From Dipteris shenzhenensis (Eukaryota), in NCBI GenBank assembly GCA_047967505.1, contig CM106538.1: a DNA stretch of 64,000 nucleotides, one strand, 5' to 3'. The notes under the pieces are model-generated. The model searched no databases. It was not told the origin of the DNA and saw only the letters and a program-made list of their open reading frames with translations. Within the stretch, counting starts at the first letter, position 1, and every line of letters begins with the position of its first letter. Position numbers and translations under genes: made by a program. Positions 26,537 to 52,190 of the stretch are shown piece by piece.

Positions 26537-26748
26537 GCAACATCAGTTTTTTGAGCAGCAGAGACAACAGCTGAGGTCTCAACCATCAGGACAGGACACA
26601 GCCAAGATAGACACAATTAAGATTGACAGGCTTTCTCAGCAAAAGAAAAATGCTTGCTCACTAGACATTGCCAGCTTGAAAAATCTTTCTCGGCTCGCAC
26701 CATGTGCTGTTGGTGGACAGAGTGAGAATATTGACAGTCTAGCTTCAG
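26537..26748 (+). CDS. HEIP1: internal exon of a HEIP1/REDIC1 (C12orf40)-like meiotic crossover gene; the locus is probably a pseudogene
   Basis: Acceptor ttcttcacag, donor G|gtatga, 212 nt open (phase 2 to 1): (R)QHQFFEQQRQQ...SLDIASLKNLS matches the recalled RQKQYFEQRR..SLDILSLLNLS motif pair; AT-rich intronic flanks. Confidence 0.72.
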
Positions 26749-26939
26749 GTATGATGGATCAATACAGTTATATATTCTTGAGAAATATAGTTTGTTAACT
26801 TTTTGATGGATGCAGTATTTAAGTGACATGGTTTCTATAGGCTACTTTGTCAAAACTATGCTTTTACTCCTACCTATGACAGTCAGATAGACAACTTGAA
26901 GTTGGAATGAAGTAGAAATCACTTAATTTTATGCTTGTC

Positions 26940-28064
26940 TAGTTTTCTAATTGCTTTTTTTAGTCTGGGCATTTTCTTCTCCTTTCAAACTCTGCTCATT
27001 CATGCATTTGTCTGCATCCACAAATTCAAGTTGTCTTATGCCTCAAGTGCTTCATCATCTTCGATGGCATCCCAAACATTCTCCTTCATGAGAAGGAGTT
27101 GTACTTTTGTTTGCCATGTAGGGAATCCGTCCCCCTTGAATTTGTCCACAAGAAGAGAGTTGGTGGAAAGTGCACCCATAAAGCTGGCAGCTAGGAGAGA
27201 GAAGAGTGATGGATAGAATGAAGGGCATAGGCGAGCTGAGGGAGAAATGGAGGGCTGAGGAAGAAAAGGGAAAAAATAATGCACAAAGGAAGAAATGGGA
27301 GAAATGGCGGGTACAATGGAGATGTAGGAGAGGAAGGAATGGCAGGCAGAACAGCAGTGAATAGAGAAGAGGAGCGGGCAAGCTGTACGGGCAGAGAGTA
27401 TGGGCAAGCTGTACGGCACAACAGTCCTTGCTGTTGTACGGCTGTCTGTACTGCTGGTACGGATAGAGAAGCGGGCAGAAATGACTGGCTTGCTGCTTGC
27501 TGCGAGCTGAGCACTAGGCCAAGAGAACGGCGCCTAGGAGCGAAGCACGGGGCTGCCACGAAAGGAGCTGAGCTGCCTCACACCATTGGAGTTGCCACGA
27601 GCCTTGAGTTGAGTTGCCATTGTTAGTGAGGCTCAGGGTGGAGGGAGTAGAGCTCAAGATGGAATTGGAGAAGCCATTCCTCCAAGGGGAATGAGGGAGA
27701 GAGGCTTCAATGTCCTCAATCTCTTACCTCAACCTCTTGGAAGATAGTCTAGCTCTGATACCATATGAAGATGCAAGACATGGAATGAAATGGAAAGTCA
27801 AAGCAAGACTAAAAAAGCATAAAGGAAATGAAATAATGAAAGAAATATACAACCAAGCAAAGTACTTACATGATCAAGAAAGGCATAAGGCTTGATGATT
27901 ATAACAATGAAATTACAATGCCTTTATAGGGTAGGCGCACACACTCTAAGTGTCAAATGTATATGGGATGAGTCCCATAGCGGCACGTGGCACTCTAGGA
28001 TATAAAGTAGTATAGTACCCTAGAATACACTAAAAGTCACTCAAATGGACTCCATTTCCTAACA
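26940..28064 (-). mobile_element. Ty1/copia 5' end: LTR 27766-28064, PBS 27752-27763, leader, gag start (ATG 27179)
   Basis: TG..CA LTR; TGGTATCAGAGC (tRNA-iMet); VDKFKGDGFPTWQTKVQLLLMKENVWDAIE is a copia gag N-terminus. Confidence 0.9.
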
Positions 28065-28499
28065 ATAGTCTCACAGGCCATCTCATGGTGGTCAAGGATA
28101 AATCTATGGCTAGGATCTCATGCTAGCAAAGGTGCCCAAGGGTGAAGGTTTACAAAATGGGATGGACTCCCCCAAATGGCTTTCTTCCTTGCATGTACAA
28201 GGATTGATCTTAGACCTTTGTGTGGACCGAGTTTCTCATGTCTGCAAGAGGTACCATGGAGGCAAACACATATCGCATGGCCTAAATCATATGGTGACCA
28301 GAGGTGATTTACAAAAGACAAAACACAAAACACAAAACTTATGGAGTACTACTCCAGGCAGAGAACCTCAAAATTGACCAAGTGATGATAAAAAAAGCTG
28401 AAAAGATAAAGTCTTTATTTTCTTCTAAGATAGTCTTTATTTTCTTCTACCACAAAGTTTGTGACTTCATTTGCTGATGGAGTCCTCTCTTCAACTATA

Positions 28500-28960
28500 T
28501 TTGCTTTGTTGTTGATGTAGCCCTTCTTCACAAGATATGCTTCACTTTCCTTGTAGTTCTCTCCTTTTCCAAAAGAGAAGCTTCGATACCCACCAAGTTG
28601 GATGTAAAAGTGTTGCTATACTCTCCATCTATAAAGCTTTTGAGTAAAACTTGTGCACTAAATGCCTTTTCAAGTTGCACCCAAACTTCATGTGAAGTCT
28701 CACACCCATCAATGTGATGAATGTATGAGTCACTAAGTCCCAATGCTATGATTGCAAGGGCCTTTTCATATTGGACTATCCGCTATACTTCCCTTGGCTT
28801 CTTTTCTTTACCGTTTGCCACATTCCATATCCCTTTTTCCATAATGGTGAACTTCTTGTTCTCCACAATCTTCTTGAAGTGTCCAAGATTTATCTTGATA
28901 CCATAACATATTATCTTGATCATATCACATCCAAGCTTATCACTTACAATCTTTTTAGAC
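28500..28960 (-). pseudogene. old copia gag relic
   Basis: EKGIWNVANGKEKKP..KALAIIALGLSDSYIHHIDGCETSHEVWVQLEKAF (UBN2/Retrotran_gag_2-like). Confidence 0.75.
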
Positions 28961-29177: not shown

Positions 29178-32100
29178 TGTTGGAACTGTGGGGAGACACG
29201 AAGTGGATAAAGAACACGAGAGTGTAGTCCACACACAAAGCTCCACTGAATAGTTCAACAATGGAAGTACAAGACTTGGGATATATATGAAACCCAAGTA
29301 TAAAGTGAAAACCCTAGACTAGAATAACTTAGACCAAGTCTAGCCTACAATACCATATCATTGTATGTCCTATCAAATCCCCCCTCAACGGTATGGCTGA
29401 AGTACTCTGGGAACTCCTCATAAGTACCTAGGGTCCCTAAGGTACAATGGTTACACAAATTCATCCTACAGGATATAGCAACCTATGGGAGTATTACAAG
29501 AAAAACAATGTCATTTTACAACCCCCCTTGACATTGTTGTAGTAATGTCTCTGATTCCCAAGCCTGTTCGATGATGTACAAACACTTTTGTTGACAGGCT
29601 CTTAGTGAAGATATCTGCTACATTGTCCTCAGATGGACAATAGATGAGGCTAATGATGCCATTTGCTATACAATCCTGTATAAAGTGATAGTGATTTTCC
29701 ACATGTTTCATGCGAGCATGAAAAACAGGATTGTTACCAATCTTTATGCAACTCTGACTGTCACATAAGATAGAGGTGGCCTGATCATCTTGTGAATGAT
29801 GCAAGTCATAAAGTAGCTTCCTTAGCCATATGCATTTTGTAGTAGCTGCATTTGCTGCCTTATACTCCGCTTCACTTGAAGAAAGAGAGACCCTGGCTTG
29901 CTTCTTACGTAACCAAGATATGCATGCGGAACCCAAAGAGAAACAGTAGCCAGAAATGGATTTTCTATCATCAATGTCCCCTGACCAATCAGAATCTGTG
30001 AAGCCACATAGATCAAGATCACAAGCATTGGTATAATGCATCCCAAGAGTAATAGTGCCATCCACATATCTGAGAACACGCTTGGCGGCATTCCAATGAG
30101 TGATAGTGGGACAATGCATAAGCTGACTCAATACTCCTACAGCATAAGCAATATCAGGCCTTGTGGAACACAAATAGATAAGACTCCCCACCAACTGTCT
30201 ATACAAAGTGCCATCAAACTTTTTAACCTTATCATACTTAGACAGTTTGAGACCCTTCTCAAGAGGTGTAGCTGCAGGCTTACTATTCTCCATGTGAAAT
30301 CTCTGTAATATACTCCTGGCATACTTAGTTTGGGACATGAAAATACCATCTTGAGTTTGCCAAAACTCAATGCCCAAACAATAGTGCAGTAAACCCAAGT
30401 CTGTCATATCAAATGACCGAGACAAAGCTGATTTTACTGATGCAATATTTCCCTCATCACTGCCAGTAAGCATGATATCATCCACATAAAGAATAAGAAT
30501 GATGATTTCTGATTTTTCTTGAAGCACATAGAGATTTGGCTCAGTATGAGTGCTAACAAAGCCCTATGATAACAAGAACTGATGGATTTTATGGTACCAA
30601 GCCCGAGGTGCTTCTTTCAGCCCATATAAAGCTCTGCGAAGCTTGCATACCTTTTGTTCCTGTCCCTTAACCACAAAACCTTGGGGCTGCTGCACATAGA
30701 CCTCTTCCTTTAGGTCTCCATTTAAGAAGGCTTTCTTCACATCCATCTGATATGAACAGGCCAACCGTAACTTGCAGCAAGAGAAATGACAGTCCGAATG
30801 GTTGTCATCTTGGCTACAGGAGCAAAAGTCTCCTCACAGTCAATTCCTTTCTCCTGACTATATCCCTTGGTAACTAAACGGGCTTTATGTTTCTCAACTG
30901 TGCCATCAGAATGATATTTCAACTTATAAATCCACTTGGTGCCAACTACATTCTTCCCAACAGGGAGATCAACCAATTCCCAAGTGGCATTCTTTTCAAT
31001 GGACTGAATTTGAGATTTCATAGCATCTTCCCATAATGGGTGTCCCTGAGCATCCTCAAAACACTGAGGTTCAATTTCAGCTTCCATAACTGTGCTCATC
31101 AAGGCATAATTGACCTGATTTTGTGCTTGCCTTGTACTAGACCTTGTTCTCCCCAACACAGGCTGATTTTGTGCATCCTGAATGGTAGCCCGAGCCCATC
31201 TAGGAAGGGGCTGACTAGCTGCAGCAGGCTGAGACTGGATCTGCAAATTTTACCCTCCTCCTTTCACAGACAATAGGCTGATTTTCATTGACTGATTTCT
31301 GAACTGAAATTTCAGAAGTGCTACCTTCATCAGTATGGTGAATTTCTCCAAATGTAGTGGAGGAAGAACTTGATGTGTTAGACACATGTGATGGTATATC
31401 TTCTGACTCAAAATGAACAATAGCCAAAGGTGTAGTTTCCTCAATGGGCATATGTAAATCATTAGGCATAATGCACGCTACATTGCTGCATCCATGTATC
31501 TGATTATGTTGACTACAAAGTTGTACTTCTACACCCATAGATTCCACAGCCACCCTCATGCTTCTAGCACCTAGTGTTTTAGACCTTGTTCTTTGTATAG
31601 CATAAGCACGACAGGCCGCCCGCATTGAATCCAACAATCTTCTCCTATGAGAACGTATTGAATGTAGCCTCTCTTCTATTCGTCTTGCCATCTTCTGTAT
31701 CCACATCAACCAACTACGTAAAGATCTATTCCTCAAAGGGAAAATAGCTTAATCAAATAACTCATGCATCATCCCTAACCATGACAAAATTGATGGATCT
31801 CAACCAATGTGCCCTAAGGAAGAAAATAATTTACAAAAGCAAGAAGCAAGGTTAATTAGAAAAGCCATCCTTTTTCCATTTATCTAAAATTGAGAGTTGA
31901 CCATCTATGCATTGAACTCGCCAAAATTCTCAGAAAGAGACATGATTGCACTTCACAAGTAACCTGAAAATAAAATGCAAATATAGATAGCAAATCTGCC
32001 CCAAAGGTGTTGTCACAAAGCACAATTCCCTTCTGGAATCACAAGGCAAAATGGGCAATAGTATTTGCTCTGTAAGTATTCTCAACTTTCAGCCCAACAA

Positions 32101-33056
32101 AGGCTCGATAAGCATCAACCAAAGGTATAAAATCTGAAGCAAATGTTTGCTTGAAAGGCATCCAATGATAGCATTCACTGTGCCAACCTTTGGCTCCATA
32201 TGCATCCGATAATTTGCCCCCAATTCTGATTTTTTTCTGCTGCGTGTAAAATATCACAAGAAAAGTGATCTCCCAGTCCAAAATAGCTTCAAGATGACTC
32301 CAGAAAGAAGTCGACCAGATTTTGGGAGCTGAAACAGTCCAAAATCAGCAACAAAACTACCAGGAATGAGGTGGCCCAGCCTAGATGGTCCTCTTGGAGA
32401 AATGCGAACTGAAAATAGGCTGGAAACTGATGAAAAACAGCAAGGAAATGCCAGATCTGAAGTTGTCCAGGCACAGGATGCTCCAAGAAGCAGTTCGAGC
32501 TGATGTAGGGGCTGGAAACTGACAAAATCAGCAGCAAAAGTGCCCAGAATGAGGTCGCCCAGCCCAGATGGAGCTCCTGAAGATAGGCGACTGGAAAAAA
32601 GTGCTGTAAATCAGCAAGTGGAGCTGATTTTGAGGATGTTTGGCTGCGAAAGATCCCAAAAACAGCAAGTCTGTAGTCGCCTAGGTCCAGCAGTGGCCCT
32701 GGTGAAGGTGCCCAGCTACAGGAGACAAGCTGCTACAGGCAAAAACGAGCTGGCTGGACTGATTTCTTCGCAATAGAAGTGACTCTTCGCAAGAGAACTG
32801 AAACCCGGGAGTGGTAGAAGCACGGGAAGCAATGCGGGAACCAAGCTCTGATACCAATTGTTGGAACTGTGGGGAGACATGAAGTTGATAAAGAACACGA
32901 GAGTGTAGTCCACACACAAAGCTCCACTGAATAGTTCAACAATAGAAGTACAAGACTTGGGATATATATGAAACCCAAGTATAAAGTGAAAACCCTAGAC
33001 TAGAATAACTTAGACCAAGTCTAGCCTACAATACCATACCATTGTATGTTCTATCA
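29178..33056 (-). mobile_element. Ty1/copia with both LTRs but lacking recognisable gag/PR/IN
   Basis: 198-bp LTRs 29178-29375 and 32859-33056 (5 differences counted); PBS 32845-32856; PPT 29376-29388; TSD aatgg/aatag. Confidence 0.95.
29511..31246 (-). pseudogene. copia RT-RNase H, frameshifted
   Basis: [55 protein letters not shown]. Confidence 0.95.
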
Positions 33057-33346
33057 AATAGCACTCAAACATAGACAATGTAAACATCATCACCATAAAT
33101 GACAAGTATTATGACACTTGTGGAGTGCGAGTTTTTTTTGGCTATCTTACTTCTGCTAGCACCTAGCTTGCATCTCAATACTTTCTTGCTCTCTTCCGAA
33201 GAATCCAGATTGGTTTGATAATTATATGCAGCCGAGCTGGCTGCCTTTTCCATGAAAAAGACTTCTATTAAGTAAGAACAAAAACCCGCGAGAGCAAGCT
33301 CAAGGCGGAATACATCATGAAATCATGAGGATAAATAAAAAATCCC

Positions 33347-36300
33347 TCAGAGTGAGGTGGAAAGAAGCCAAGGCTGAGGCTGAAAGTGCCATCTCAACCC
33401 TGTAGTAGATTCAGAGAAGAAAGGAGAATCCTTCCATTCCCTGAAGAAAGAAGCCCTCCTAGCTGAGGCTGCACGGGAGTCCCCCTGCATACCCGTCCAT
33501 ACGGCCATCAGAGTATGTACGATGTCTGTCCAGATACTAGCCAATGTGTGCGAGGGATGAACCTGAGTACCCTCCATAGCCTCTGTGCATCTGGCTTTCC
33601 AGATATGCCAGGCTGCTATGCTCGCTAGAATCTCCCAAGAAGTATCCACAGAGGCATGTACAGCTGTAAAAGGACGGTGTGGTACCACATCCAACGAACA
33701 GAACTCAACCCGATGACGTCGAACCGAAATGGCTCGAGAGGAGTCAACTCCCTCATAGAAAACCTGAGGTCCTGTAAGAGAAAGCCAAGCCACCGAGCCC
33801 CAAGTCATAAAAAGTGGGGAATGGGCAAAGTGACTGAAGATCCTGGCTATCCCCATCCAAATCAATCTCGCCTGTCTGCAATCCCATAAGCAATGCTGAA
33901 TAGACTCCGAAGCAGAAAGGCAACGAGGGCAAGTAGGGTCGGCTCCGAATCTGGACCTCCAAAGGTTCACTGCAATCCCTCCATGGATAGAAAGCCAAAA
34001 GAAGATAGTGATCTTTCTATTCCTGTGGGATTTCCAGAGCCTCCTCCAGAAGTACCTCTGCTGATCCGCAGTAATACCAAAAGTCTCCCAATGAGGAACT
34101 CTGGAGGGTCTCCAACCTCTACTACTGAGCTGAAATCTCTTGGCATTATCGACCGTGTAACGAAAGAAGGGGATGCTCTTCTCTCGATGCCCCGCGTCAA
34201 TCCACTCCCACTCTCCGAGGTCCCACTGTAAATACCTGATGGGAACTCCTCCATAGAGCCAGAGCCTCCAAGACCCGGTGGAGAGTAGCTGGGGGTCAGG
34301 GTCTAAGAATCACTCTGAATCTGATCCCTGCATCAAAAGACCTACAACCCTGATAGGTTGAAAAGCAGACTCAAGCAAGATGTCCTCTGTGGACCTGAGC
34401 AATCTGCCACCATCCTGGACACTAAAAACCAAAGCATCCTCCTGTGCATCTCGGAAAGCTAAGACCTGAAGCGGAACCCCGCCTCTCGAGAAAGTACCTG
34501 CCCAAGTGGAGGAAGTGAGTGGCATATCATCTGTGTCTATCCAAGCCTCTGGAAGGGCTGCCTCAATTTGCAAGATCCTCCCTGCACTCCCTCTGAGATG
34601 TCCTGTCAACCTTGATTTGGTTTCCTCTGGAAGCCTACGGAAAGCTTTCCAAGATCCCAAAGAAGAAGCAGGTCCCCTCTCCCACCTGGCCCACTGCATG
34701 TAGAGTGAGGCACCCAATGGCCTGCCAAGATCATCTAAAATACTGTCGTTCCACATGATGGGCTGCCTATTAATCTCTTCCCGGGAGGAAGGAGGAATCC
34801 TCCGAAGAGAGCTTCTGAAACTGGCCCAAGCTTTCAGAATGGCAACCATGAGAGGGGACGAAGGTGACCTGAGGTGTGCTGTGGTGAAGATCCATCTAAC
34901 ACTGCTCATCCAGTCTCCTCCTGAGGAAGGTGTGCACCTCTGTATGCTGCTGATAAGAAAGTCCTTCCACGGTTCCTGTCCTGGCATAAGTCCTCGCACC
35001 ACCATCTTGCAAAGTAAAGCTCTGCACTGTAAATCTGGATCAATAATGCATGGTAGAAATACCCAAGCCGACCTGGCAGCCCAAATACCTGATAGGCACA
35101 CCCCTCTGAACCCAAGTGAACCCTATGTCAAGCCCCCAAACTGGAGTGTCCTCATCACTGATCCAAAAGCCATTGGATTTATGCCAATTTATCTGCGCCC
35201 CTGCCGCCAAGCAAAATAAATCCAATGCTGTCCTGAAAGAAGTGAGTGTCTGTGGAGAGGCATCCAAATAAATCGCTGTGTCGTCAGCCAACTCACTGTC
35301 AAGTAGCTCCTCTTCTCTTCTGATGGGAAGTCTCAGCCCAAAGATGTCAGCTTGAGATCTAACATAGATACTCATAGCTTCGGCCACGAACAAAAAAAGG
35401 AAAGGAGCAAGGGGGCATCCCTGATGGACTGATCTCGAAATCTGAAATCTCTCACCCCTTACCCCACCAATAAGTACCTGGCTATGGGCTGATCTGTACA
35501 AAGAGGAAACACCTCTGATCCAAACATCAGTGAATCCAAAGCAAAGAAGGGTGCCCTCCAAAAAACTCCAATCTACTCTGTCATAAGCTTTTTCAAAATC
35601 CAATAGTAGAATGGCAAGATTCTGGCCACTCTGCATGGCCCACTCTGAAGCTTCCCAGAAAGAAAAAATGTTATCAAAAATACTTCTGCCATGCACAAAA
35701 CCCGTCTGAGTGTCATGAATAAGATCAGGGAGAAGTGGCTGCAATCGGAGCCTGATAGCCTTGGCCAGAATCTTGTAACAAGTCCCAAGAAGTGTGATAG
35801 GCCTCCACTGGGACAATAAATTTCTGCTACCTCCTTTTGGGATAAGGTGGATGAGACCCTCTGTAAGCGACCCAGGCATCTCGCCAGAGTCCCAGATGGC
35901 CTGCATGGCTGAAGTAATATAGTCTCCAATCATATCCCAAAATGCAATGAAAAAAGACGGGGTGAGGCCATCTAAACCTGGGCACTTGCCCTTGTGAAGG
36001 GCTGAAAGTGCAGTCCTGAACTCTGTGTTGGTAAAAGGTGCGTCGAGTAGAACATGCATATCCGGATTCACCAACACAGGGATACTCTGCCAAATAGCCT
36101 ATCTAGCATCCTCTCTATCGTGTGTCTCTGGATCAGCAGTAAGGAGGGTGGCATAGAAATCTGAAGCTATCCGTAAGACGTCATCAGGCTCTGTCTGTAA
36201 AACCCCATGTGAGTCAATAAGCTGGGATACACTCTCTCTACTATGTCTAGGGCCAAGAGTAGAGAAAAAGTGTTTATTGACTCTACCACCCATCTGAATC

Positions 36301-37418
36301 CAGAAGGACTCCCGTGCATGAAAGGCATACTCTGCTCTCTGATCAAGCAATAACTGCAGATGAGCCCTTGCTGCAGCAAGGCGCTCCTGAATCCAAGCAT
36401 CTGAAGGCCGTTTCTGCTCTTCCCTCTGGAAAGCTGCCAACTGCTGGCGAACACCAATCTCATGTCTGAGAATATCTCGTCTCCTGGTACAAGCAACTGA
36501 GCAGTAAAAGTCGCTAATACCAGAAAGGGCAGCGGCTACATGTGATGGATGTGGCTGCCCACCCTGGACATGAGCAAACCATATTTGTAGGGCTGCCTCT
36601 GTAAGGTCCTCCTCTGTGTAAAAGGCATCTGGAATCCTGATGCTGGTAGACCGGTCTCTCAAGTGAGGCTCTGAGATAGCCAGCACAACAGGGAAGTGAT
36701 CTGAAGTGGAAACCCCCGCAGCAATGCATACCGATCCACCTCTGTCTAGTGCCCAGTCATCTACATAAAATCTGTCAATGCGTGCATGAATAGGCATCTG
36801 TTGCCTCCTGTTCGACCAAGAGAACAGGAGGGACTGTGGCTGAATAAGAAAGGCATCATCACACCAAGTATCTCTGCCACAGAAATGGAAAAGGAAGGCA
36901 TCCCAAGCTGCTCTCTCCAAAGAGTGAAGTCCGCCTTCTCTACCCCCTTTTTTGTCTGACGGTAACTCGACCATGTTAAAGTCACCTCCAATCACCCATG
37001 AATCCACAATGGGGGCCCAGGAGAGCAAGGTCTTCCACATAAGGACACGTTCCCCTCTAATGTTGGAGGCATATAGGTTAAGGAAGCCAACCTTACACCC
37101 TCCAATCAAAAGAATAATCCACTGAGCTCTAGAGGGGATAATGACTCCGTGCCCAACAACTAAGGGGAGAACCGCCGACTGCGAAACTGAAATAGAAGTG
37201 CCTCCCCTGGTGCCCAAGGCAGGCGACCAAAAAGTATGGCCAGAAAGCAACTTGCCTGACTTGGCACAATCTCTATAATCCAGCTTGTGCTCTTGAATAA
37301 ATAATATATCAATGGAACCCCCAGTAACACCTAGATGAAGCTGATCTCGGATCAGCTGTCTACGGCGGCGATGTGGGACGCTACCTAGGCCCTGTATGTT
37401 CCAACTGATAATCCTCAT
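33347..37418 (-). pseudogene. LINE A ORF2 (APE endonuclease, RT, zf-RVT), disrupted
   Basis: MRIISWNIQGL, QEHK, GDFN, RIDRF, SDH; WRPITL, DFEKAYD, QGCPL, LADD; stop at 36099; ~290-bp deletion near 35055 versus B. Confidence 0.94.
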
Positions 37419-38955
37419 CGACGGGAGGATGTAGAGTGGAACACCTTACCCGACCTAGTGGCGGAAACAAACCCCTCAACAGGGGAAGACCTCCTGCTCG
37501 AGGAGGGAGGGATGGAACCAAGTGGTGGAAAATCAACAGGGGAAAGAATCCTGGCACCTGAAGAAGAAGCCCTGTCAATAGGAAACCCAACCACTGGCTC
37601 CCCAAAAGTAGCGGGCACAAACTCCTCCTCTGGGAAATCTGAACTCTCTGCCAAGGCTGAAAACGAGTTCCTGTGGAGCAAGCCAGACACCGGAGTGCGA
37701 AGGATCCCTTGTGAGGGAAGAGGATCAAAAGTGTAAGCTATCCCCTTCCCCCTATCCAAGGGAGGAAGTGAGGAATGCTCTCTATCCTGTGTCTGCCCAG
37801 CCGCGGAGATCTCTCCTGCCTCAAAAGGAGCATCTGGCACTGCTGGATCTAAGGAAGAAGCTGCAACTGGGGAGGAGTTCGAAGCTTCAGCGTCTCGGAC
37901 TGTGCAGGGTGAGACAGGAGGGACAGCTCAAGGTGAAGCAGAGTCTACTAAGGTACCCTTGTGAACTGAAGGAGGGACCTGCACACGTACTGGAACCCAC
38001 TGTAGAGCGTCGCGTGTGCCTGAGGGAGGTGGGGGTCGAGGAGCAGGTGAAGGACCTGTACCATCCCCCTGTCGAGGCCGAGGAATAGGTGCCGGACCTG
38101 TACCACCGCCTAACTGAGGAGGACCGCCAAGCGAAGGACGAGGAGTAGGAGCTGGATCTGTACCACCCCTCTGTCAAGGTCGAGGGGCAAGTGCAGGGTC
38201 TAATCCACCCTCCTGTCCCCCCTGTCGATGCCCTGGGGCGGTAGTTGTACCAGAGGGCTTCTTGGGCCTTTTCTTCTTCCTGGGGCAATCCCTGGCAAAG
38301 TGTCCCGAGGTCCTGCAAATCCTGCACTGGTCCTGTCTGCCTGATGGCGAAAAAAGGAACCATCCGGGCGCTGGATCATAACGTGATCCATCTTGAGGTT
38401 AGGATCCTTGCAAAGGACCCTAACTCTAGGAACCCCATCAGCCTTGGTTGCCTCTGCTGCAGTCAATGGCAACCCAGGGAGGGGTGGGATCTCAACAACT
38501 GCGCCAAAATGCTCCCCAATAACAGAAAGAAGTCGATGGTAAACCTGGGGAAGCCCGGGGAACCTGATGAAGAGCGAGAAGATTTTCTTATCTGCCTCTA
38601 CTGGGTCGAAACCAATGTGAAAGGCTTCAAAGAAAATCTTCCTGTGTCCCAGGTGTAAAAACTCAGCCTTGAGCAAAGTGCTCGTAGCCTCTGGAGTGTC
38701 AAAAACAACGTGGAAAAAACCTCGTCCCAGAAGACGGACATCTAACAATCGTGGAGTGAGGTCTGGGGGGAGAGCCGCAAGCATCCAGTCTCTGGCTTGG
38801 GATCTGGAGGGGTGAGACCCGAAGATGCGTGCTAGCAACGTGGTAGAGCATTCAATCTCTACATCCTTCTTGAGCTGCTGCAACTCGTCTTTAGAGAAAG
38901 TGATAGTTTTCACGGCCGGTGGAGGTGGAGTAGGATTGGCTGACGGGGTATCCAT
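37415..38955 (-). pseudogene. LINE A ORF1 (RRM-like plus CCHC), frameshifted near 38345
   Basis: Homologous to B ORF1; CRIC..GHFARDC in a shifted frame; ends SATRSGKVF..SSRR. Confidence 0.88.
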
Positions 38956-39650
38956 CGCCAATCAAGGTGGGGAGGCCGACTCTAACAAATTAAACGCTCC
39001 TTCCGTTCCAAATAAGCTGCAGGAGAAAAGGGGGCAGAAGGAGGGGAAAGGAGGCAAGGAGGAAGCAGGGGGCAAGGGGAGGGAAGGAGGAGAGGGGTTG
39101 AGAGGGGAAAGGGGCAAGCTGAGAGGGAGGGAGGGGGCGCTGGAGGGGAGGGCTGAGAGGGAGTGGAGAAGAAGGAGAGGGAGAGGGAGAGGAAGGAGAG
39201 AAGGGAAGGGGAGGAGAGGGGGGGGGGAGGGGGCGGAGAGCAGGGAGGAGGCGGGGGGGAGCAGGCTGAGAGGTAGGGAGAGGGCTGAGAGGAAGAGAGG
39301 GGGCGGGAGAGCAGGCAGGGAGGGGGCGGAACAGCAGGGAGGGGGCGGAATAGCAGGGGGGAGGGGGCGGAAGCAGGGGGAGGGGGCGGAACAGCAGGGG
39401 GGAGGGGGCGGAAACAGGGGGAGGGGGCGGAAAGGCAGGGGGAGGGGACGAGGGACAGGCAGGGGGAGGGGGCGGAGCAGCAGGGAGGGGGCAAGGGACA
39501 GGCTCGCTGGCTGCCTTTTCCAATGCTGACAGCTTGGCAAATTTTATTATTATTATTATTATTTTTGCAAAAAGAGACTTCAATTAAGTATCAAAGAAAA
39601 ACCGTTAGAGCAAGCTCCATACGGGATACATCATGCCATGCATGAAAAGC

Positions 39651-42600
39651 TCAAGAGCCAAAAAGAAAGGATTGAGGATATAGTGCCATCTCAATCTAGT
39701 AGAAACCTCTGAGAAAAAGGGAGAACCCCTCCAAACTCGAAGAAATATAGTCCTTCTAGAAGAGGCTGCCCATGAAGGGCCCTGCATGCTAGCCCAGAAA
39801 TTTCTACGCAAATCTGCGGTGATGAAGAAGCTTTCCCAATGGGGGGCTCTGGAGGGAATCCAACCCCTACTGTTCAGCTGAAATCTCCTGGCATTACCAA
39901 CCGTGAAACGAAAGAAGGGAATCCCTCTCTCTCGGTGCCCATGATCTATCCACTCCCACTCTCCTAGGTACCACTGCAAGCACCTGATAGGTGCACCTTC
40001 ATATAACCACAACCTCCAGGATCCCAAGGCCAAGAGCAGAGGGTCGGGGTCTAAGTACCACTGCAAGCCCGCTCCATGGTCCACAAAACCAGCAATCCTG
40101 ACAGGCTGAAAGGCAACCTCAAGAAGAATGCCATCCTTGGATGTAGAAAGTAAACCTCCATCCCCAACATCAAAGACCAGTGTGTCTTCCCCGAGACCTC
40201 GGAGAGCGATCACCTGTAAAGGAACTGATGTCCTCGAAAAAGCCCCCATCCAAGTGGTGGAAGTAATAGGCAACTCAACTGTCCATTCCACCGAGATGGC
40301 TGCATCTATCTGCTGAATCTTGCGTGCTACCCCTCTGAGGTGACTCACGGACTACAGTCTCTGATCCTCAGGTAGCCTGAGAAAAGATTTCCAAGAGCCT
40401 ACTGTGTAGGCGGGGCCTCTCTCCCATTTAGACCACTACATGTAATGGGAAGTGCCCAGTGGTCTGGCATGCTCGTCAAGAATACTATCATTCCAAATGA
40501 TCGGCTGCCTATCAATCTCTTCGACGGTAGAAGGTGGAATCCTTCGAAGAGTGTTCCTGAAGCTCTCCCAAGCTTTCAGAATGGCAGTCATGAGAGGAGA
40601 GGCAGGAGATCTGAGAGGGGCTGAAGTGAAAATCCAGCGAGGGCTGTCCACCCAATCATCTCCCAAGGTTGGTGTGCAAGGCTGAATGTGTCCAAAAAAG
40701 AAATCCTTCCAAGGTTCCTGCCCAGGCATGAGTCCCCTCACCACCACCTTACAAAGCAATGCCCTGCACTGCATGTCTGGGTCAATGACATTAAGGCCCT
40801 CTTCACATGTAGGGAGAATAATGGTCTTCCAGGCCACCCTTGCTGTAACATCTACTGTGCCATCAAGTCTACTCCATAAAAAATTCCTGACTGGTCTGAT
40901 GAGCTGAGTGATGCAATCCCTAGACCGGCACCAACAAGAACACACAAACCAGGAGGTGGCCAAGAGAACCTGGTTCACTACCACAACTCTAGATGCAAGG
41001 TCGAGTTTGGCAGAGCTCCAGAAAAGGAGCTTTTTCCTTATACTTTCTAGTACTGGGGCAAACTGCTGTGCTGGAGAGATGTCCAATCCTACCTGGCATC
41101 CCAAATACCTGATAGGAACACCCCTCTGAATCCAGGAAAAACCAATGTCAATTCCCCAGTCTGGAGTGTCCTCATCACTGATCCAAAAGCCAAAGGATTT
41201 ATGCCAGTTAATGTGTGCCCGTGCAACTGAGCAAAAAATATCCAAGGCTGTCCGGAAAGAATCAGGTCACTGCAAGGAGGCCTCAATAAAAATAGCAGTG
41301 TCATCAGCCAACTCACAGTCAAAAAGCTCCTGCTCCTGCTCCTGTGTCTGTCTCAAGGGCAATCTCAGCCCAAAAAGATCAGCCTGAGATCTAAGGAAGA
41401 TACTCATAGCTTTTGCCACAAAAAGAAAGAGGAAGGGGGCTAAAGGGCATCCCTGACGAACTGATCTGGAAATCTGAAACCTGTCACCACTTACCCCTCC
41501 AATCAAAACCTGGCTGTGGGCTGATCTGTAAAGGGAGGCCACCCCTCTGATCCAAGCATCTGAAAATGCAAATCGTAGAAGAGTGCCCTCAAGAAAACCC
41601 CAATCTACTCTGTCATAGGCTTTTTCGAAGTCCAAGAGTAAAACTGCTAGCCTCTGCCCACTCTGCATAGCCCACTCTGTGGCTTCCCAAAAGGAAAAGA
41701 TATTATAAAAAATGCTCCTGCCATGCACAAAGCCTATCTGATTATCACGGATGAGGTCTGGAAGAAGGGGCTGTAATCGGATGCTGATCGCCTTGGCAAG
41801 GATTTTGTAAAGAGTGCCCAAAAGAGTGATGGGTCTCCAATGGGATACAAAATTCCTGTTGCCACCTTTCGGGATAAGGTGAATGAGTCCCTCGGTCAGT
41901 GAGTCAGACATCTCACCTGAGTCCCAAATGCCCTGCAGCGCTGAAGTAATATGACCACCTATCATATCCCAAAAGGCTATATAAAAAGAAGTAAGACCAT
42001 CGGAACCAGGGCATTTGCCCTTATGAAGGGCAGAGAGAGCAGTCTTGAATTCTGTGTTGGTAAAGCATGCATCAAGTGAGCATAACATCTCTGGGGTGAC
42101 CAACACAGGTAAACTCTGCCAAACTTCATCTCTAGCCACCTCTCTAGCCTGTGAGTTCGGATCTCCGGAAAGTAGGGAGGTATAGAAAGCTGTCGCTAAA
42201 TGCATGACGGTTTCCGGATGGGACTGCAAAACACCGTCAGAGTCAATAAGCTGCCTGGCACTCTCTCTACTATGTCTGGGACCAAGTGTAGAGAAAAAGT
42301 GTTTATTAACTCTCCCTCCCATCTGTATCCAAAAGGACTCCCGTACATGGAAGGCATACTCTGCTCTCTGATCAAGCAAGGTCTGCAAGTGAGCCCTTGC
42401 CGCAGCAAGGCGCTCCTGTATCCAAGCAATTGATGGTCGTTTCTACTCCTCCCTCTGTAGGGCTGCCAGCTGCCGGCGGATACCGATCTCTCGCTTGAGT
42501 ACCTCACCTCGCCGAGCACTAGCAATGGAGTGATAGAAGTCGCTGATACTGGCAAGTGCTGTGGCCACATGTGAAGGACCGGCCACCCCCCCTTGCATAT

Positions 42601-43444
42601 GAGAAACCCAGATCTCCAACACTACCTCTGTAAGAGTCTCATCTGTGTATAAGGCGTCTAGGATTCTGATACTATGAGATCGTCCTCTCAGATGAGGCTC
42701 TGAAATGGACAAAATTACCGGAAAATGGTCTGAAGTGGAAACACCGGGTGCAATGCAAACTGTCCCCCCTCTATCAAGAGCCGAGTTACCCACATAGAAT
42801 CTGTCAATCCGAGCATGGATAGGCATCTGCACCCTATGGTTCGACCATGAAAACAAAAGTGACTGAGACTGAACAAGAAATGCATCATCTGACCAAACAT
42901 CTCTGCTAGTGAACCTGAACAAGAAGGCATCCCAGGCTGCTCTCTCAAGGGGGTGGATACCACCTTCTCTGCCCCCTTTCTTATCAGAAGGTGCCTCAAC
43001 CATGTTGAAGTCACCTCCAATAATCCACGAATCCGCAATGTCAGCCCAGGAGAGCAACTCTTTCCAAAACAAAACACGGTCCCCTCTGTTGTTTGGAGCA
43101 TAAAGGTTGAGGAAACCAACCTTACATCCGTCAATCAAAAGTAAAACCCACTGGGCCCTGGAGGGGGTTATGGTACCGTGTCCAATGACCAGAGGGAGAA
43201 TAGAGTCTGAAACTGAAATGCATGTACCTCCTCTGGTTCCCAAGGCAGGAAGCCAAAAAGTCCGGCCTGAGAGCAGCTTACCTAACTTGGAGCAATCTCT
43301 GATATCCAGTTTGTGTTCCTGAAGAAAAAGAATGTCTAGGGAACCACCTGAAACACCTGGATGGAGCTGGTTCTTGATCAGCTGTCAGGGACGGCGATGA
43401 GGGATGCCGCCCAATCCCTGTATATTCCAACTGGCTATCCTCAT
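39651..43444 (-). pseudogene. LINE B ORF2, several stops and a 549-bp deletion
   Basis: MRIASWNIQGL start at 43444; EN and RT motifs in ORFs 42443, 41267, 40436, 39605. Confidence 0.94.
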
Positions 43445-44814
43445 CGGCGGGAGGAAGTGGGTTGGAATACCTTACCCGACCTGGTGGCGGAAACAGAAAC
43501 CTCTACCGGAGTAGACCTCCTGCCATACACACGAGGTCCAAGGGGAGGAAAGTCCACAGGTGAGAGAGAGAAGGATCTCTCAAGAGGGATGCCGATAACT
43601 GGCTCTGCAAAAGTAGAGGGTACAAAATTATCATCTGGGAGGCTAGAGAGGTCCTCCAAAGCGGAAAATGAGTTCTGCTGAGCCAGTCCTGGGGAGGGGG
43701 TACGAAGGATTCCTACCGAAGCAGGAAGAGAATCTAAAACCCTCTTCCCTCTGTCCAAAGAGGGAGGCACCTGTACTGGATCCTGATCAAAAAGTGGTGC
43801 GGACGAGGTGCCAACAACCATTGCTGAGGAAGGTACAGCCTGATCCAAGGGTGGAGTCGAACAAGGCTCCTGAATAGTAGTCTCCTCCTGAGGCTCCAAG
43901 GGGGTAGCCTTCGAAGAGGTGGAGGAGTGAACTAAAGTAGAGGGCCTAGCCGCGATCGAAACCCACCGTGGGCCAGAGGTGGTGCGGGGTGCCGAAGGGA
44001 CTCCAGTAGCCCTAGGAGAGGGGGGAGCCCGTGTCTGAGGCCGTGTCTGTGGAGCGGTAGGTCTTGTTCCAGCTCTCTGTCGTAAGCTAGTACGAGTTGG
44101 TTGCTTTGTGGGCCTCTTTTTTTTCTTTGGGCAATCTCTAGCGAAGTGCCCCGAGGATTTGCAAATTCTGCACTGGTCCTGCCGATCTGCAACCTCAAAT
44201 CTCTGGCGGAAGAAGGACCCATGGGGTCGCTGTAGCATGATGTGGTCATCTGAAATATTGGGGTCCTGGACAATGATCCTAACCCTGGGTACCCTGTCCA
44301 TCCTGACCGCCTCAGCAGCCGAAGAGGGCTCGCCAGGGAGAGGGGGGATCTCTGCCACCATACCAAACCTCTTGCCAATAATTGAAAGAAGCCGGTGATA
44401 AACTGAGGGAAGACCAGGGAACCTGATGAAAACAGAAACTCGCTGCTTGTCCTCTTCAACTGGGTCAAATCCCAGTTGAAAAGGAAACAAAAAGATCCTC
44501 CTGTAGCCTAGAAGTAGAAACCCGGCCTGTAGCAGGTCTCTCGTGACGTCCGAGGAATCTAGGCACACCTGAAAGAAACCCCGTCCCAACAAACGAACAT
44601 CCTTGAGGTGGGGGGCGAGGTCCTGAGGAGGCGCTGCCAGCATCCAATCTCTAGCTTGTGACCTGGAGGGGTGTGAGCCATGAATGCATGCGAAGAGAGT
44701 TGTGGAACACTCATGCTCCAAATCCTTTTGCAACTACTGCAGCTTGTCTTTTTTAAAAGTGATAGTTCTCGCGGCCGGTGTGGGCGGAGACGGATTGTCT
44801 GAATGGGAACCCAT
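43441..44814 (-). pseudogene. LINE B ORF1, one premature TAG near 44735
   Basis: LLGRGFF RRM-like segment, CRICKSSGHFARDC, Pro/Ser-rich tail. Confidence 0.9.
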
Positions 44815-45749
44815 TCGTCAATCGAGGTGTGTTGGCTGATTCAAACATAAAAAATAGAACTCCGTCCGCTTTCCTGAAAACCCAGCAGACCCCTAAAAGA
44901 GAACAGGGGTACTCCGAATGAACGAGGGGGTGAAGAACAAGGGAGAGAGAAGAAGAAACCAAGGGGAGACAACGGCAGCAAGGAGGAGGAGGGGAGGATA
45001 GAGGAGAGGAGGAGAGGAGGAGAGGGGGAGAAGAGGAGTAGAGGAGAGGGGAAGGAGAGAGGAGGAGAGGAGAGGGGAGGAGAAGCAAGGAAGAGCAGGG
45101 GGGGAGAGGAGGGGATAGGCTGCAGCGGGGGGGGGGGGGGCAGCAGGCTGCAGCGGGGAGGGAGCAGCAGCAGGTGCGGGGGGGAGCAGCAGGCTGCAGC
45201 GCAGGGGGAGCAGCAGCAGGCACGGGGGGGGAGCAGCGCGGGAGGCTGCAGCAGCAGGGGCAGCGCGCAGGGGAGAAGGCAGCACGGGGGAAGGGGGCAG
45301 AGCAGGGGAGAGGGCAGGTAGGAGGGGGCAGCGAGGAGGGAAGGGAGGGGGCAGCGAGGAGGGAGCAGGAGGAGCAGCAGGGAGCGGGGAGAGAAGCAGC
45401 AGGAGGAGCGGGGAGAGGAGCAGCAGCAGGGAGGAGGAGCAGCAGGAGGGAAGGGAGGGGGCATCGAGCAGGGAGAGGAGGGGAGCAGGAGGAGCGGGGA
45501 GCAGCAGCAGCAGCAAAACTCCTTTTGTTGCTCTAACAGCTTGGCAAAATTTAAGGGCATAGTTGTGGCGGAAGTTAATCATGCACGTCAGACCTTTTGC
45601 CCATATACAAGAGAATTTGCTATTGAGACAGGTAGTTTGAAACAATGATGCTCATGTAGATCAAAGGGTGCTAAACCTATATACTAGATAGTAGACTTGC
45701 TCATGTAGATCGGAGGGTGCTAAACCTATAGACTTCCTCAATTAGCTTA

Positions 45750-48455
45750 AAACTCAAGATGCTTTAGTCCACAAATGCATAGTCTGAGGTGGAGTTAACA
45801 TGATGGATGTGTAGAGTACTTTCTTGATCTCTCCAAGAAGCTGGACATATATAAGCATCGATGCAAGCAACAACATAAGAGGATAAAGAACTCGAGGGCG
45901 AGTTTGCTTTGCTGAAGAGTGCTTGGGGTGCAAATCAAGAATTGGCATAGGTGATATTAGAAAGGCAAGCCTTGCAAGCAAATCTGGATGCATTGAGGGC
46001 AGAATGGGAAATGGTGGTCGACCTATAGAATTGGATGCAGAGGGTGTTGAGGGCCGTGGTTTTATTGGACCTTGATTTTACCGATCCCCTAGTCCTTGTA
46101 CGAAAGGACTAGGTATGCCGCTCAACAAGATTGGGTTTTAGTAATGAGTTTGACAAGAACCCCTTAAGCATGATACTACCTACGATTCTAGGGGAATCAA
46201 GTATAATGCTAGCCAAGCAATTAGTCGTAAGTGTGCATAATATAACTGACCATTCAAGCAAGGCTATGATGACTCCATAAACCTTCTTGGGCTAAAGAGA
46301 AGCCTACTGCTTTGTCCTGCGGAGGTATTCGAGGAGAGCAACACGTATAATATCCTTTAGCCTAATAGTCCCTTAGTGCCAAGAGTTTGTTCGCCATCAA
46401 CTAGAGATGAGAATCCTCTCTATCCAGCAAACCTGGGGAAACACTTGATAGATCTAGCGGCACTTAAGGACACCTCCTAGCACTTTCAACCATTATGCTC
46501 CTCCCATGCTCCCTCAACGCCCATCATACTCATCCCATCATCATGGCAAATGAGGCCAATGTCATCATCACAAACCTCTGAGTCTAAGTCACTCTCATAT
46601 GCCTCTCTAACGCCTCTACCATTGATTGCAATAAAGCTATCCTCATACAGCTAGAATATGATTTGTGTCCACCACTCTCATAATAATCATATGCATCATC
46701 CAATGTGTTAGAAAAATCTATGAGTTTATCTCTAGCTTTGTTAAGTTTCCTAGATGAGGGTCATGGCAAAATTCCTTAATGATCCCATAGATCGAGCATT
46801 GGGGGACAAAGCTGAGGAGTACCCTTGGCAGGTGAGTTGAAGCCTTACCGAGTGGTTTGAAATATTTAGTGAGCTTCAAAGAGTCTGGTACCAGGACCCA
46901 GTAGATTGAATGCCATGCAAGTGAGAGTAGTTAGAGATGGGAGGGTTGAGGGAACTCCGAGAAACTGAGCCTTGCCATGCCAATAGGGCTAGTTTTGATG
47001 CCTGATTAGGCACAAATAAGACTGACTTTGGTTTAGAAGAACCCAATTTGGTGGGAGAGGTTAATCAAGCAAATGCACCACTGTAGGAACAAGGCTCAGA
47101 TTCTACACTAGCGCAGGTGTAAAGGCTGACGATCTGCAGGTAGGATACCTAGAAAAGAAAGCATTAGAAGCTAGCATTGACTTATTATCTGCACCCCATA
47201 ATTGAGATAGGAGATTTAGCAATTGAGCCGGTGTCCGTACTCCTCTCGAACAATTATGTGGTTGTTTTCAATACACCACAATAGAAAACTCCACTAATAA
47301 TTGTGCCAATGCCTTGTTGAAATAAAAAAATTTGTTGAATAGAATGGAGGAGATGCCCAGATTGCGGTCTAAGGCCAAGGTACTTGACTATCTGCTCTAG
47401 CAAGTGAAGTAGCTCGAGCAGTCGGAGTCAATACTTAGTCAAACAGAGATCTATTAGTGCAGCCATCTAAAACAGGTATAGAACAAAATTTTTGATTGGT
47501 CAAAACTCTAGGATGGTCAAACTTTGACCAGATTTTGATTGTTTCCCCCAAATGGAACAATCTGAAGCTGGAGGCCCAAATTGGAGCTGAAAAAAGAAGC
47601 ATTCAAGGGGATTTCGGCATGGAAATGAAGCTCTTACTGAGAACTACTTCCAGCAAAGAGAAATGGCGAAATTTCACGTTGTGTCATAGTGGAGAGATGT
47701 GCCTATTCCGATTGGTATTTGTGTGATTTGTCTACAATCACTGCACCATTTGAGCTCAAATTTCGTGAGCAAACTCCTTACAGCATTGCCCTACGGTGTG
47801 TTAAAGGAATTAGTGCAATTGTACTCCAGCATGACGAATTCATTGAAGTTTTGTTGAAAGTTTGTCAAACGAAGACTGTGTCGGCATGCGCAGTAGAGGC
47901 GAGCATTCTCCAATTCCTTTGAGCCAAAGAGTCGCCCCAAGTCAAGGATGCTTCAGCTCAAAGGGCTTGGCAAATCATGCAGCAACAAAGCTAAGAAAAA
48001 TCTGGAAGAGAAAGAGGGAAAAATGTGGAAGGAGGTGGAGAGTGGAGAAGAAGGTGATGAGGTGGCACTTTGGAGCTAGATTAAGCTAGGAGCATGAGGT
48101 GGAAGCTCAAGGAGGATAGAGTGTCTCTGATATGACATGTTGGGAAGTGGGAGAGAAGGAGGAGATCATGGAAGAGAGTGTGGGAACCAAAGAGCAAAAT
48201 GTTCCATCGAGTTGAGAGAAAGTCCTTTTTTTTTATAGAATGGGAGAGAGATTGGCCTAGATCATAGGTACCTCTCCTACATCAAAGGAAATCATTCCCT
48301 ACATCATAAATCAAAGGCACCTCCCCATGTGGGGGCCTTTGCATTACATCATCACTTATGTCATAGTCTAGACATATCATAGCACTTAGTGTGCTACACA
48401 CACACACACACACACATGATCATAGAGCAAGCCCTTGATCACAAAATTCCCGACA
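45750..48455 (-). mobile_element. heavily decayed LTR element 5' part; LTR 48138-48455
   Basis: TGTTGGGAA...TTCCCGACA terminal inverted repeat; degenerate iMet PBS (tctctgatatga, 48124-48135); internal extent uncertain. Confidence 0.6.
48396..48416. repeat. (CA)n microsatellite inside the LTR
   Basis: acacacacacacacacacaca. Confidence 0.95.
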
Positions 48456-49169: not shown

Positions 49170-49975
49170 TTGTTTTTTGGGAGGGTAAAAGAACCTTTCA
49201 TTAAGAAGAATGTACATTCATAGCTATCTCAAAGTGAGACAAGTACTACTCATGCTAAAAAACTGAAAAGAAAACATACTCTAGTTGCTCCAGTAAAGAA
49301 CAGGTAGTACTAGACAGCTAAAGACACTTCTAGCTAGGCCGCAGGAAGAACACCCATGAAATGTGCATCCTGAAGGGAGCGATGCAGGGAGGAACGGAAG
49401 AAATGATAAACATCCACAGTGGATTGTCCATAGAGCCGAGAGTTATGGGCATGATATAAAGACCATAGTGCCCAATAACGACACCAAGTGAAAAATTGAA
49501 TATAGTCGGTGTAGAAGTATATCTCTCAAAAAACCAAAAGTGCCTACCATAAGCAATGCTAGGAAATCAGACACGAAGATAAGTCCCCAATCTGGAAAGA
49601 AAATCATTGGGCAACCGGGCATATCTAGAGTAGATGCAGGACTGTCTCCCTTGGATATGAACAAGATGGACAATGGGAGGAAGTAATGCACATGGCAACG
49701 AAGAATGAACTCATTGGTAGAGCACCAACCAAACACCGCCATAAGAAATGTTGTTGCCTGAGTAGGAGCTTATTACTGTTCCAAATACGACCAAGACAAA
49801 CCTTCCACCAAGTAAGAGGTTTGTCCAAATGCCAAATAAAAAGGCCACGCTCTTGAATCCATAGCTGTGATAAAAGAAGATGATAAGCTTTCTTGGCAGC
49901 AATATCTGCCACAAAGAAGAAAGTAGAATAACCTAGAATGCCTCGATCTCGAATCTCCAATCCATAAGAGAATGG
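49170..49975 (-). mobile_element. 3' fragment of an older D-related LINE (D')
   Basis: T tract 49170-49178; WHLDKPLTWW..FLWRCLVGALP..CPSCSYPRETVLHLL homologous to the D ORF2 C-terminus. Confidence 0.85.
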
Positions 49976-52190
49976 TTTTTTGTGAGATTTGCTTTTCCAA
50001 AATATCTCCATAGCCTGGGACATATAGGAAGCCAAATGCTTAAAAGACCAGGGAAGAAGAGGCAAATAAAATTGCACATATGCCATAATGATAGACTGTA
50101 CTATTCGAAGTCGAACATGTAGAGGTCAAGTGGACAAATGCCAGTATTCCAGCTTCTTGTTAATCTTTTGAAGCACCCATTTGAGCTGTTGTTGAGGGGT
50201 AATATTCCAGCCAATGGGATACCCTAAATGCCTCACAATAGTATGGGAAGAAACAATGTGGCCTGGCCAGAGAAGTGCATGCCAATCAACTTCTTTCAAT
50301 GCTAGAAGATTCGATTTTTGAAAGTTAATATGCAGTCCAGCAGCTATGCCAAAATCATTTAGAGTATGCATCAAATGAGAGAGGTCACTTTGAGAATTCT
50401 TGGGCATGAAATATGAATCATCAGCATATGCCTGTGCAAGAAACGGTTGTGCCCCTGGAATTTGCAAGCCATGAAGCTGTCTTGTATCTACAAGATGGTC
50501 CATATGCAACAATAACGGATGAGTAGCAATGGCATATAGTAGCGAACTAAGGGGGCAACCCTGTCTCACTGAGCGGGTCATAGTCCATGTCCTTGACAAC
50601 CCACCACCAAGCAAACACTGCGCAGTGGCATGAGAATAGAACCAGTAAATAATATGGACCAGCCGAGGGCCAAATCCCAATTTATGCATAGTCTGAGAAA
50701 TAAAATCCCAATGGACAGTATCAAATGCTTTCGCAATGTCCACTTGTAGAATGAGAACATCTTGTTTAGAATATTTGGCATACTCAATTGCAAGCAAAGC
50801 ATTGGAGATATTGTCAGTAATCTGCCTTCTGGGAACAAACCCATACTGCCTGGGATGAAGTCCTGCTTGCAAGATAAACGGAACCCTGAGGACAATCATT
50901 TTGGCAATGAGTTTGTAAATGACTGGCATAAGAGATATGGGCCGCCAATCAGCCATTGTCTCACACAACCTTTTTTTGGGGATCAATTTGACAAGGCTAT
51001 GTTTCCAAGAAGGAGGAAGAGATTGTTCTGCCCAAGCATGATTGATCATAAGAAGAAGAGTGTTCTTGAGATCACCCCAAAATGCACGGAAAAATTCAAC
51101 AGTCAATCCATCCCAACGAGGAGAGCTGCCTTTACGTAAATGACTCAAAGCATCATCCAGTTCATTAAGCATAAAGGGCTGCTCCAATGCATGAGCCTGT
51201 TCTCGAGACAATATAGGGTGAACATGCATAAGAAATTGAGACCTAGCTGCATTCACTTGCATCGAATGATCAGGCTAAGGAGAAAAGAGATGCTGGAAAT
51301 GACTAGAGCATTGCGATTCCAATTCTAATTTGGAGGTGGTCCAGGTGCCATCATCTTGCTTGATCCTGCAAATATCCTCCTTTCGGCTATCCGCATGCAG
51401 GCTTTTCAAGAAGGCTTTGGAGGAGCAGCCCTTATCCAAAAGGGGTTTCATACGAGCTCGGATTTGCCACTTCTTTAATTTGCGAAGATCATTTTGATAG
51501 ATGATATGAACCGCTCCATCAAGAGAGGGACTACTATTCTCCATTATGGAGGTGATAAGTACTCCTACAGAGACTGGAAGGAATTATGTCCTGTTCAGAG
51601 GAGGTGAGGTGCCTATAAGAGCTGATTACATCCATTTGTTGCTTGTGAGATTGAGCCCATTTCAGCTTCAGCCTGAGGTTTCCCATGTAACTCCGTCCAT
51701 AATCTTGAATAACAGCCTGCAAGCGATGGGCAAGACTAATCCAAGCGAAATCCATTGGATTACAGATCAATGGGAAGCAGTCATGACCACATTTCAGGGA
51801 AAAATTCCTGGTTGTCCTATTTCTACTGCTTTTATTCATGATTGGAAGAGAATTCTCTCTTATGCTAAATGGTCAGGTGCTTCTTCCCATCATGGTAATT
51901 CTCTTCGCTTGGAAAGCATCCATTGGAGCAAGGTGTTTGAATCGCCTCTTGCTTTACAGGCACCTATTAAAGCATATAATCTTATGAAATTGAGCATAAG
52001 ATTTGTCATAGATGTTGTGGATCAACATGGTTATGTACTTTCATTTCCACAAGCTTGCAGGACATTCCCCTTGGGTCTACATCATAGGCCCATTTGGAGA
52101 ATACTTACAACTATGTTGCAGCCATTTGTTCCTGTTCCTCCACTGTTTGTACAGGACAAATTACTGGACTGGAATCTGATTTCCTTATCT
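49976..52190. mobile_element. rearranged family D LINE: minus segment 49976-51755 joined head-to-head to plus segment 51753-52190
   Basis: Minus part corresponds to 59209-60900; plus part corresponds to 61091-61528. Confidence 0.9.

Follow-up and report, generated by a model that had tools for sequence, protein, structure and literature searches.

The window analysed here is the whole of a 64,000-nucleotide stretch of contig CM106538.1 from the Dipteris shenzhenensis assembly GCA_047967505.1, with positions counted from its first letter. Its plus strand carries an exon of a gene related to HEIP1 (26537-26748), and downstream of this exon two neighbouring long interspersed nuclear elements (LINEs) lie on the minus strand: LINE A at 33253-39505 (6253 bp) and LINE B at 39542-45535 (5994 bp). 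The double LINE insertion is confirmed; deletion of both elements brings together a 123-bp segment, and the proposal that this segment is the next exon of the HEIP1-like gene, split by the two LINEs, is judged to be evenly poised between true and false.

LINE A, LINE B and the segment they divide

The junctions of both elements were read by eye and then subjected to a repeat test by script, which found exact target-site duplications (TSDs) of 17 bp for LINE A (left copy 33236-33252, right copy 39506-39522) and 13 bp for LINE B (left copy 39529-39541, right copy 45536-45548). Only the 6 bp at 39523-39528 separate the two TSD pairs; the adjacency, common orientation and TSD lengths described by the first-pass annotation, an earlier reading of the same window, are therefore borne out. 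Thirteen selected minus-strand pieces of open reading frames (ORFs) from the two elements were scanned against Pfam, and seven gave matches. LINE A features zf-RVT, RVT_1 (E 3e-27) and Exo_endo_phos (E 5.8e-08), and its first ORF (ORF1) resembles DUF4283 at 20.3 bits, under the 27.2 cut-off; LINE B features RVT_1 (E 3.8e-22), Exo_endo_phos (E 5.7e-10) and a zinc knuckle in ORF1 (zf-CCHC, E 1.1e-05, above the cut-off). The endonuclease domain Exo_endo_phos lies upstream of the reverse transcriptase (RT) on the minus strand in both elements, and an LTR-like terminal repeat (LTR, long terminal repeat) was found on neither among the best 20 of 27 repeat families. Given these domain sets on the minus strand, LINE A and LINE B are classed as L1-type LINEs lying antisense to the putative gene, an assignment made from Pfam domains only. 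The blastn alignments between the two extend over 2695 bp (75.4% identity), 964 bp (70.7%) and 1317 bp (67.0%), and 300-nt blocks are 72-80% similar; the elements are relatives, yet neither is a copy of the other.

Both elements begin with a 5' leader of tandem 19-22-bp units that is G-rich on the plus strand and C-rich on the sense strand of the element, at 39208-39492 (minus strand) in LINE A and as an equivalent array at 44981-45510 (minus strand) in LINE B; in LINE A the start of ORF1 comes after this repeat-rich leader. An unusual DNA structure or a repeat promoter is conceivable for these G/C-skewed arrays. The similarity of a further LINE copy in the window to LINE A stops at position 6225 of 6253, 28 bp from the 5' end of LINE A; since this copy reaches so near that end, and since leader, ORF1 and ORF2 are present in each element, the earlier description of both LINEs as full-length is fair, but neither is intact. 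In LINE A, two in-frame stops (36099-36101 and 34310-34312) and a frame change near 35040-35122 break ORF2, and ORF1 has additional frame changes; in LINE B, ORF2 keeps a single frame throughout, but in-frame stops interrupt it at three places, namely 42443-42445, 41267-41269 and a point between 40352 and 40435. Both elements are dead.

The 3' ends of the LINE superfamily in the window are of three kinds: LINE A ends without a tail (33253-33265), LINE B carries a (TAA)n-like tail on its left side (39542-39570), and sister copies end in poly(A), one of them in about 17 A (7418-7440). Plant L1-type LINEs, non-LTR retrotransposons whose ORF1 bears a zinc knuckle and whose ORF2 encodes an APE-type endonuclease, an RT and a zinc-binding region at its C-terminus, include the families Ta11, Cin4, Karma and BNR. 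LINE A and LINE B share with plant L1-type elements the set and order of domains, TSDs of variable length (here 13 and 17 bp), the A-rich or (TAA)n 3' tail (here in LINE B and other copies) and the presence of 5'-truncated sister copies, as seen in the window; they differ in that LINE A has no A-rich or other tail and that both copies are dead.

To restore the interrupted DNA, one TSD copy was kept per element, and LINE A and LINE B were deleted. The resulting 123-bp segment spans 33232-45631 and is assembled from three plus-strand pieces: 33232-33252, which begins after the AG at 33230-33231 and holds the left TSD of LINE A; 39523-39541, formed by the 6-bp spacer and the left TSD of LINE B; and 45549-45631, which ends at a CAG|GTAGTT donor with its GT at 45632-45633. 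One forward frame of the segment is open, namely the one that takes up the single base remaining at the donor after 26748; the segment is symmetric, running from phase 1 to phase 1. The stop-free, phase-compatible segment that had been proposed on excision of both LINEs is thus restored exactly as claimed. Directly 3' of its putative donor a 37-bp unit is repeated 49 bp apart at 92% identity (45649-45734).

The HEIP1-like exon and its gene

The exon at 26537-26748 (plus strand) encodes part of the conserved N-terminal domain of HEIP1 in its fern type; it is preceded by a CAG acceptor (26534-26536), followed by a GT donor (26749-26750) and ends in phase 1. The surrounding ORF, used as a query, retrieved two fern-type proteins at 48-49% identity from 104 candidates (P0001 and P0002), of which P0002 is named by NCBI as a hypothetical protein from Adiantum capillus-veneris. 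With this protein as query, a full scan returned 35 relatives at E <=0.001, and the N-termini of the relatives show the HEIP1 pattern; the same N-terminal pattern is seen in the Arabidopsis HEIP1 sequence, At2g30480, given in PMC9957857. A hidden Markov model (HMM) built from 30 N-termini and run against six-frame ORFs of the window matches only the ORF at 26421-26795, over positions 19-87 and at E 5.6e-13, the runner-up standing at E 1.8. The exon contains both the RQ.Q.FEQ..Q and the SLD..SL.NLS motifs in their fern-type wording. These similarities mark it as a true N-terminal exon of HEIP1, with its nearest matches among fern proteins; the earlier naming of the gene as HEIP1-like is upheld.

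The donor after 26748 leaves phase 1 at a position shared with fern models. In two short gene models from ferns, P0005 and P0006, translation continues past the equivalent donor, and the first intron-encoded residues in them are the same as in the read-through of the window; from this agreement the position, phase and first bases of the intron appear to be conserved with ferns. Several fern-type HEIP1 gene models seem to be mis-predicted, three starting in the intron before the second exon and three stopping by read-through of the donor (P0004, P0005, P0006, P0009 and P0017), which suggests long introns around the second exon in those genomes too; P0004, P0009 and P0017 are without exon 1.

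HEIP1 belongs with C12orf40 to a pro-crossover family (PMC10265981, PMC9957857), and the conserved N-terminal patch of this family is shared by the exon at 26537-26748. The locus differs from the family in that only one exon is found, the first piece and the GTQWTP motif conserved in ferns being absent from the window, and in that the candidate next exon is without a detectable counterpart in 36 of 36 relatives.

The 123-bp segment as a candidate exon

The explanation that competes best with a split HEIP1 exon is that the 123-bp segment is a chance exon-like stretch in a large transposon-filled intron, in which case both LINEs would be ordinary intronic insertions and nothing coding would have been hit. 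The open frame of the segment, taken alone, is not beyond chance; the combination of open frame and consensus splice sites is. Lax criteria carry no meaning here: AG..GT boundaries with compatible phase and an open frame of at least 90 bp cover 50% of positions outside transposable elements, and lax candidates in general cover 36-50%, which suits the chance stretch. Strict criteria combine a YAG acceptor, at least 10 T in the 20 bases upstream and an AG|GTA donor with a phase-1 frame that stays open for at least 90 bp; the segment is their sole match in 9.9 kb of sequence outside transposable elements, and once it is taken out no match is left in 9.8 kb of such real sequence, which argues against a chance origin. 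In 3 Mb of Markov-2 simulation strict candidates arise at 0.09 per 10 kb and cover 0.12% of positions; when the criteria are relaxed, the share of positions covered in local null models rises to 0.8-2.3%, and only three candidates are found in the 10.6 kb after the 26748 donor, one of the other two lying in a Copia gag remnant. Consensus splice sites, phase and length thus coincide at only about 0.1-2% of simulated positions.

Composition and placement were also considered. The GC content of the segment is 0.455 against 0.353 and 0.410 in its flanks, and that of the known exon at 26537-26748 is 0.448 against 0.32-0.33 in its surroundings; the GC content of the segment is exon-like, which again does not favour a chance stretch. 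With transposons removed, the candidate follows the 26748 donor by about 0.9-2.6 kb, an ordinary intron length; the distance is this short because Copia pieces fill most of 27.0-33.06 kb. In a protein atlas the 31-residue contiguous part of the peptide reaches a recognition value of 3106, above the calibration line of 2300 and unlike the 1256 of the one intronic control ORF of equal length; resting on a single control, this value lends weak support to an exon, and the best feature scores in the atlas (0.80 and 0.85) lie inside the range of shuffled sequences.

Several observations weigh against the segment being a HEIP1 exon. The splice criteria were set after the candidate had already been seen, and the true chance level is therefore closer to the upper of the figures given above. 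One antisense frame is open as well, so that two of six frames are open in all. The hidden peptide aligns with none of 36 HEIP1 family proteins beyond expectation (Smith-Waterman with 200 shuffles each; best z 1.60, equalled by 14 of 200 shuffles), and against a profile of the stretch that links the N-terminal patch to the fern GTQWTP motif it scores 0.4 bits, with 132 of 2000 shuffles as good. A word-based database search with 42 residues, which include the longest contiguous part, and covering longer proteins only, gave no matches from one candidate. When the two closest proteins, and then all 36, were compared by tblastn with the window and with the LINE-excised window, only 26537-26748 was matched, all 14 matches of the 36 relatives elsewhere standing at E >=0.13; a full-length HMM from 26 sequences likewise matched only this exon in both versions of the window. 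HEIP1 exon 1 (MLQWMGG.RRKV) has no match in any frame of the 64-kb window, a degenerate DNA pattern for this first piece has none at up to three mismatches, and the GTQWTP motif yields no true regular-expression match in the window; in the absence of exon 1 and GTQWTP from the window the locus may be a fragment, although the missing HEIP1 exons may also lie outside it. Finally, a gene that is needed would a priori seldom carry an exonic insertion.

The first-pass annotation had stated that the next-exon proposal would fall if no transcript or homolog contained the peptide, and as far as the searches were run no homolog does: it is found in 0 of 36 HEIP1 relatives and in no database match. The power of the homology test is low, not nil; it is limited because similarity is confined to the N-terminus, HEIP1 is largely disordered and this part of it diverges fast. 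Between plant and animal HEIP1 homologues similarity is described in PMC10265981 as limited to the first ~75 residues, the protein being largely disordered, and a plant-conserved N-terminal region of ~250 residues is cited in the same article. In the four fern-type proteins the linker has a comparable length of 34-41 residues by our own count from the alignment. Positional homology of the peptide to this variable linker was considered, since a few residues align by eye, and rejected, as the Smith-Waterman and profile tests are non-significant. What stands of the proposal that the segment is the next exon is its consensus splice signals, its phase and its exon-like GC content, far above the local background; what does not is any support from homology to the 36 relatives.

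A second gene owning the segment was also sought and rejected: a Pfam scan of 92 ORFs around the site gave only Copia gag pieces and weak sub-threshold matches. The best-scoring match among these ORFs that is not to a transposable element falls on a 58-residue minus-strand ORF at 46587-46760, which resembles DUF608 of glycosyl-hydrolase family 116 (E 0.0011, 18.8 bits against a cut-off of 26.3); this is probably chance, and neither a database search nor a search of solved structures gave it support. NCBIfam gave nothing meaningful on four ORFs.

The chance stretch gains from the peptide being in no relative and from the two open frames of six, and further from the Copia pieces already contained in the same putative intron; in general, surviving insertions are far commoner in introns than in exons. 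For the weighing, the splice and frame signals are taken to favour an exon perhaps at least 50-fold, and the prior for an exonic site is placed between a fraction of a percent and, if the locus is unconstrained, about 10%. On this balance an exon of some kind is mildly favoured, and the chance stretch is regarded as a substantial possibility that nevertheless falls short of even.

A different account holds that the segment is a real exon of a decayed or partial HEIP1 copy, that the LINEs entered DNA already free of selection and that the functional HEIP1 is found at another place in the genome. Only a dispensable exon would easily tolerate two insertions, and the window, with one conserved piece of the family in 64 kb and neither exon 1 nor GTQWTP, is what such a copy would leave; HEIP1 is moreover reported in PMC10265981 to be required for normal crossover numbers. 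However, the exon at 26537-26748 retains an open frame, undamaged splice sites and its conserved residues, and transposons make up more than half of the window by estimate, so that the missing exons may lie outside it; the fern models that are likewise without exon 1 (P0004, P0009 and P0017) suggest a long first intron over loss. A decayed copy is accordingly considered unlikely.

Closeness of the insertions and neighbouring elements

The priming nicks of both LINEs are placed on the plus strand, where one follows 39522 (in the empty site) and the other 39541, and both come before AT (A|AT); nicks on the same strand account for the shared orientation of LINE A and LINE B. At least seven 3' ends of this LINE superfamily are present in the 64 kb, five with the signature at 0-1 mismatch and two diverged; they lie at 7445, 10445, 11281, 14320, 33260 and 39576 on the minus strand and at 23882 on the plus strand. 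Six of these seven are antisense to the HEIP1-like exon and the plus-strand LINEs at 51.5-62.2 kb run opposite, giving no clear orientation bias. By a rough estimate, not computed, that assumes 7-12 insertions and about 30 kb of DNA before the LINEs arrived, the chance of a pair within 19 bp in the window is 3-8%, and many such pairs are therefore expected in a large genome; LINEs are estimated to account for roughly half of the window, and transposons overall for more than half. The closeness of LINE A and LINE B is most simply explained by a very high regional LINE load and two similar A|AT nick sites.

A true LINE hotspot, or an attraction of LINE B to the 5' flank of LINE A (or of LINE A to the 3' flank of LINE B) by DNA structure or chromatin, is scarcely credible: first-strand nicks 19 bp apart on one strand and both before AT, full-length elements where most other copies in the window are 5'-truncated, and leaders of G/C-skewed tandem repeats speak for it, but the seven or more superfamily 3' ends and the estimated pair chance per window make the hotspot or flank targeting of the first-pass annotation unnecessary, and other LINE fragments are also close together, e.g. 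those at 11101 and 11266.

In the favoured account, two separate target-primed reverse transcription events placed the two related L1-type LINEs on the minus strand, with first-strand nicks 19 bp apart on the same (plus) strand; the target was a short unique stretch, in which a fern-type HEIP1 gene copy most likely had its next exon, 123 bp long and running from phase 1 to phase 1. The split segment could presumably no longer be spliced as a single unit, and the likely outcome would be either in-frame skipping, at the cost of 41 codons where the protein is poorly conserved, or loss of the gene copy. That the gene is knocked out, as had been claimed, does not follow from the insertions, since skipping a symmetric 123-bp exon that runs from phase 1 to phase 1 removes 41 codons and keeps the frame. 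A stronger form of the split-exon proposal holds that the HEIP1 exon was hit twice within 19 bp because the LINE endonuclease or the chromatin of a meiotic gene makes it a recurrent target, leaving a copy that is inactivated or 41 residues shorter; this is very unlikely, and were it true, effects on crossover control or a reliance on a second copy would be possible.

Should the exon be real, the locus would offer a natural insertion allele of a gene that promotes meiotic crossovers, from a lineage without HEIP1 studies, and either the 41-residue segment would be dispensable through in-frame skipping or its function would be carried by another copy. In transposon-rich genomes, neither ORF tracks nor gene predictors reveal an exon that a transposon has split. 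Apart from this the locus is routine: LINE insertions flanked by TSDs, insertions lying side by side and broken elements are familiar features, and the case adds a further instance to the known kinds of transposon-split exon and adjacent insertion. It shares with exon disruption by retrotransposons, and with nested or adjacent clusters in large plant genomes, the splitting of a unique segment by independent TSD-flanked neighbours, and the same process is visible in the neighbouring Copia element and LINE fragments of the window; it differs in that both full-length elements hit one putative 123-bp exon.

The Copia-type element lies in the same putative intron at 29178-33056 (minus strand); its LTRs (29178-29378 and 32859-33059) match over 201 bp at 97.5% identity and begin with TG, the flanking 5-mers agree at four of five bases, and RVT_2 lies inside. 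Its internal region is apparently shorter than a complete element would have. Separate Copia gag remnants are found on its exon-facing side, at 27039-28782 on the minus strand (DUF4219, E 6e-4; Retrotran_gag_2, E 1.7e-8). Positions 1-9500 contain plus-strand pieces of Ty3/gypsy-type polyprotein with gag, protease, RT, RNase H, integrase and SH3 regions, RT and integrase occurring twice; at about 7418-8893 a minus-strand LINE fragment with 92-96% identity to LINE B interrupts these pieces. Beyond LINE B, a further LINE cluster without nucleotide match to LINE A or LINE B occupies 49625-62155 and comprises one minus-strand element (49625-51274) and at least two plus-strand elements with DUF4283, endonuclease, RT and zf-RVT.

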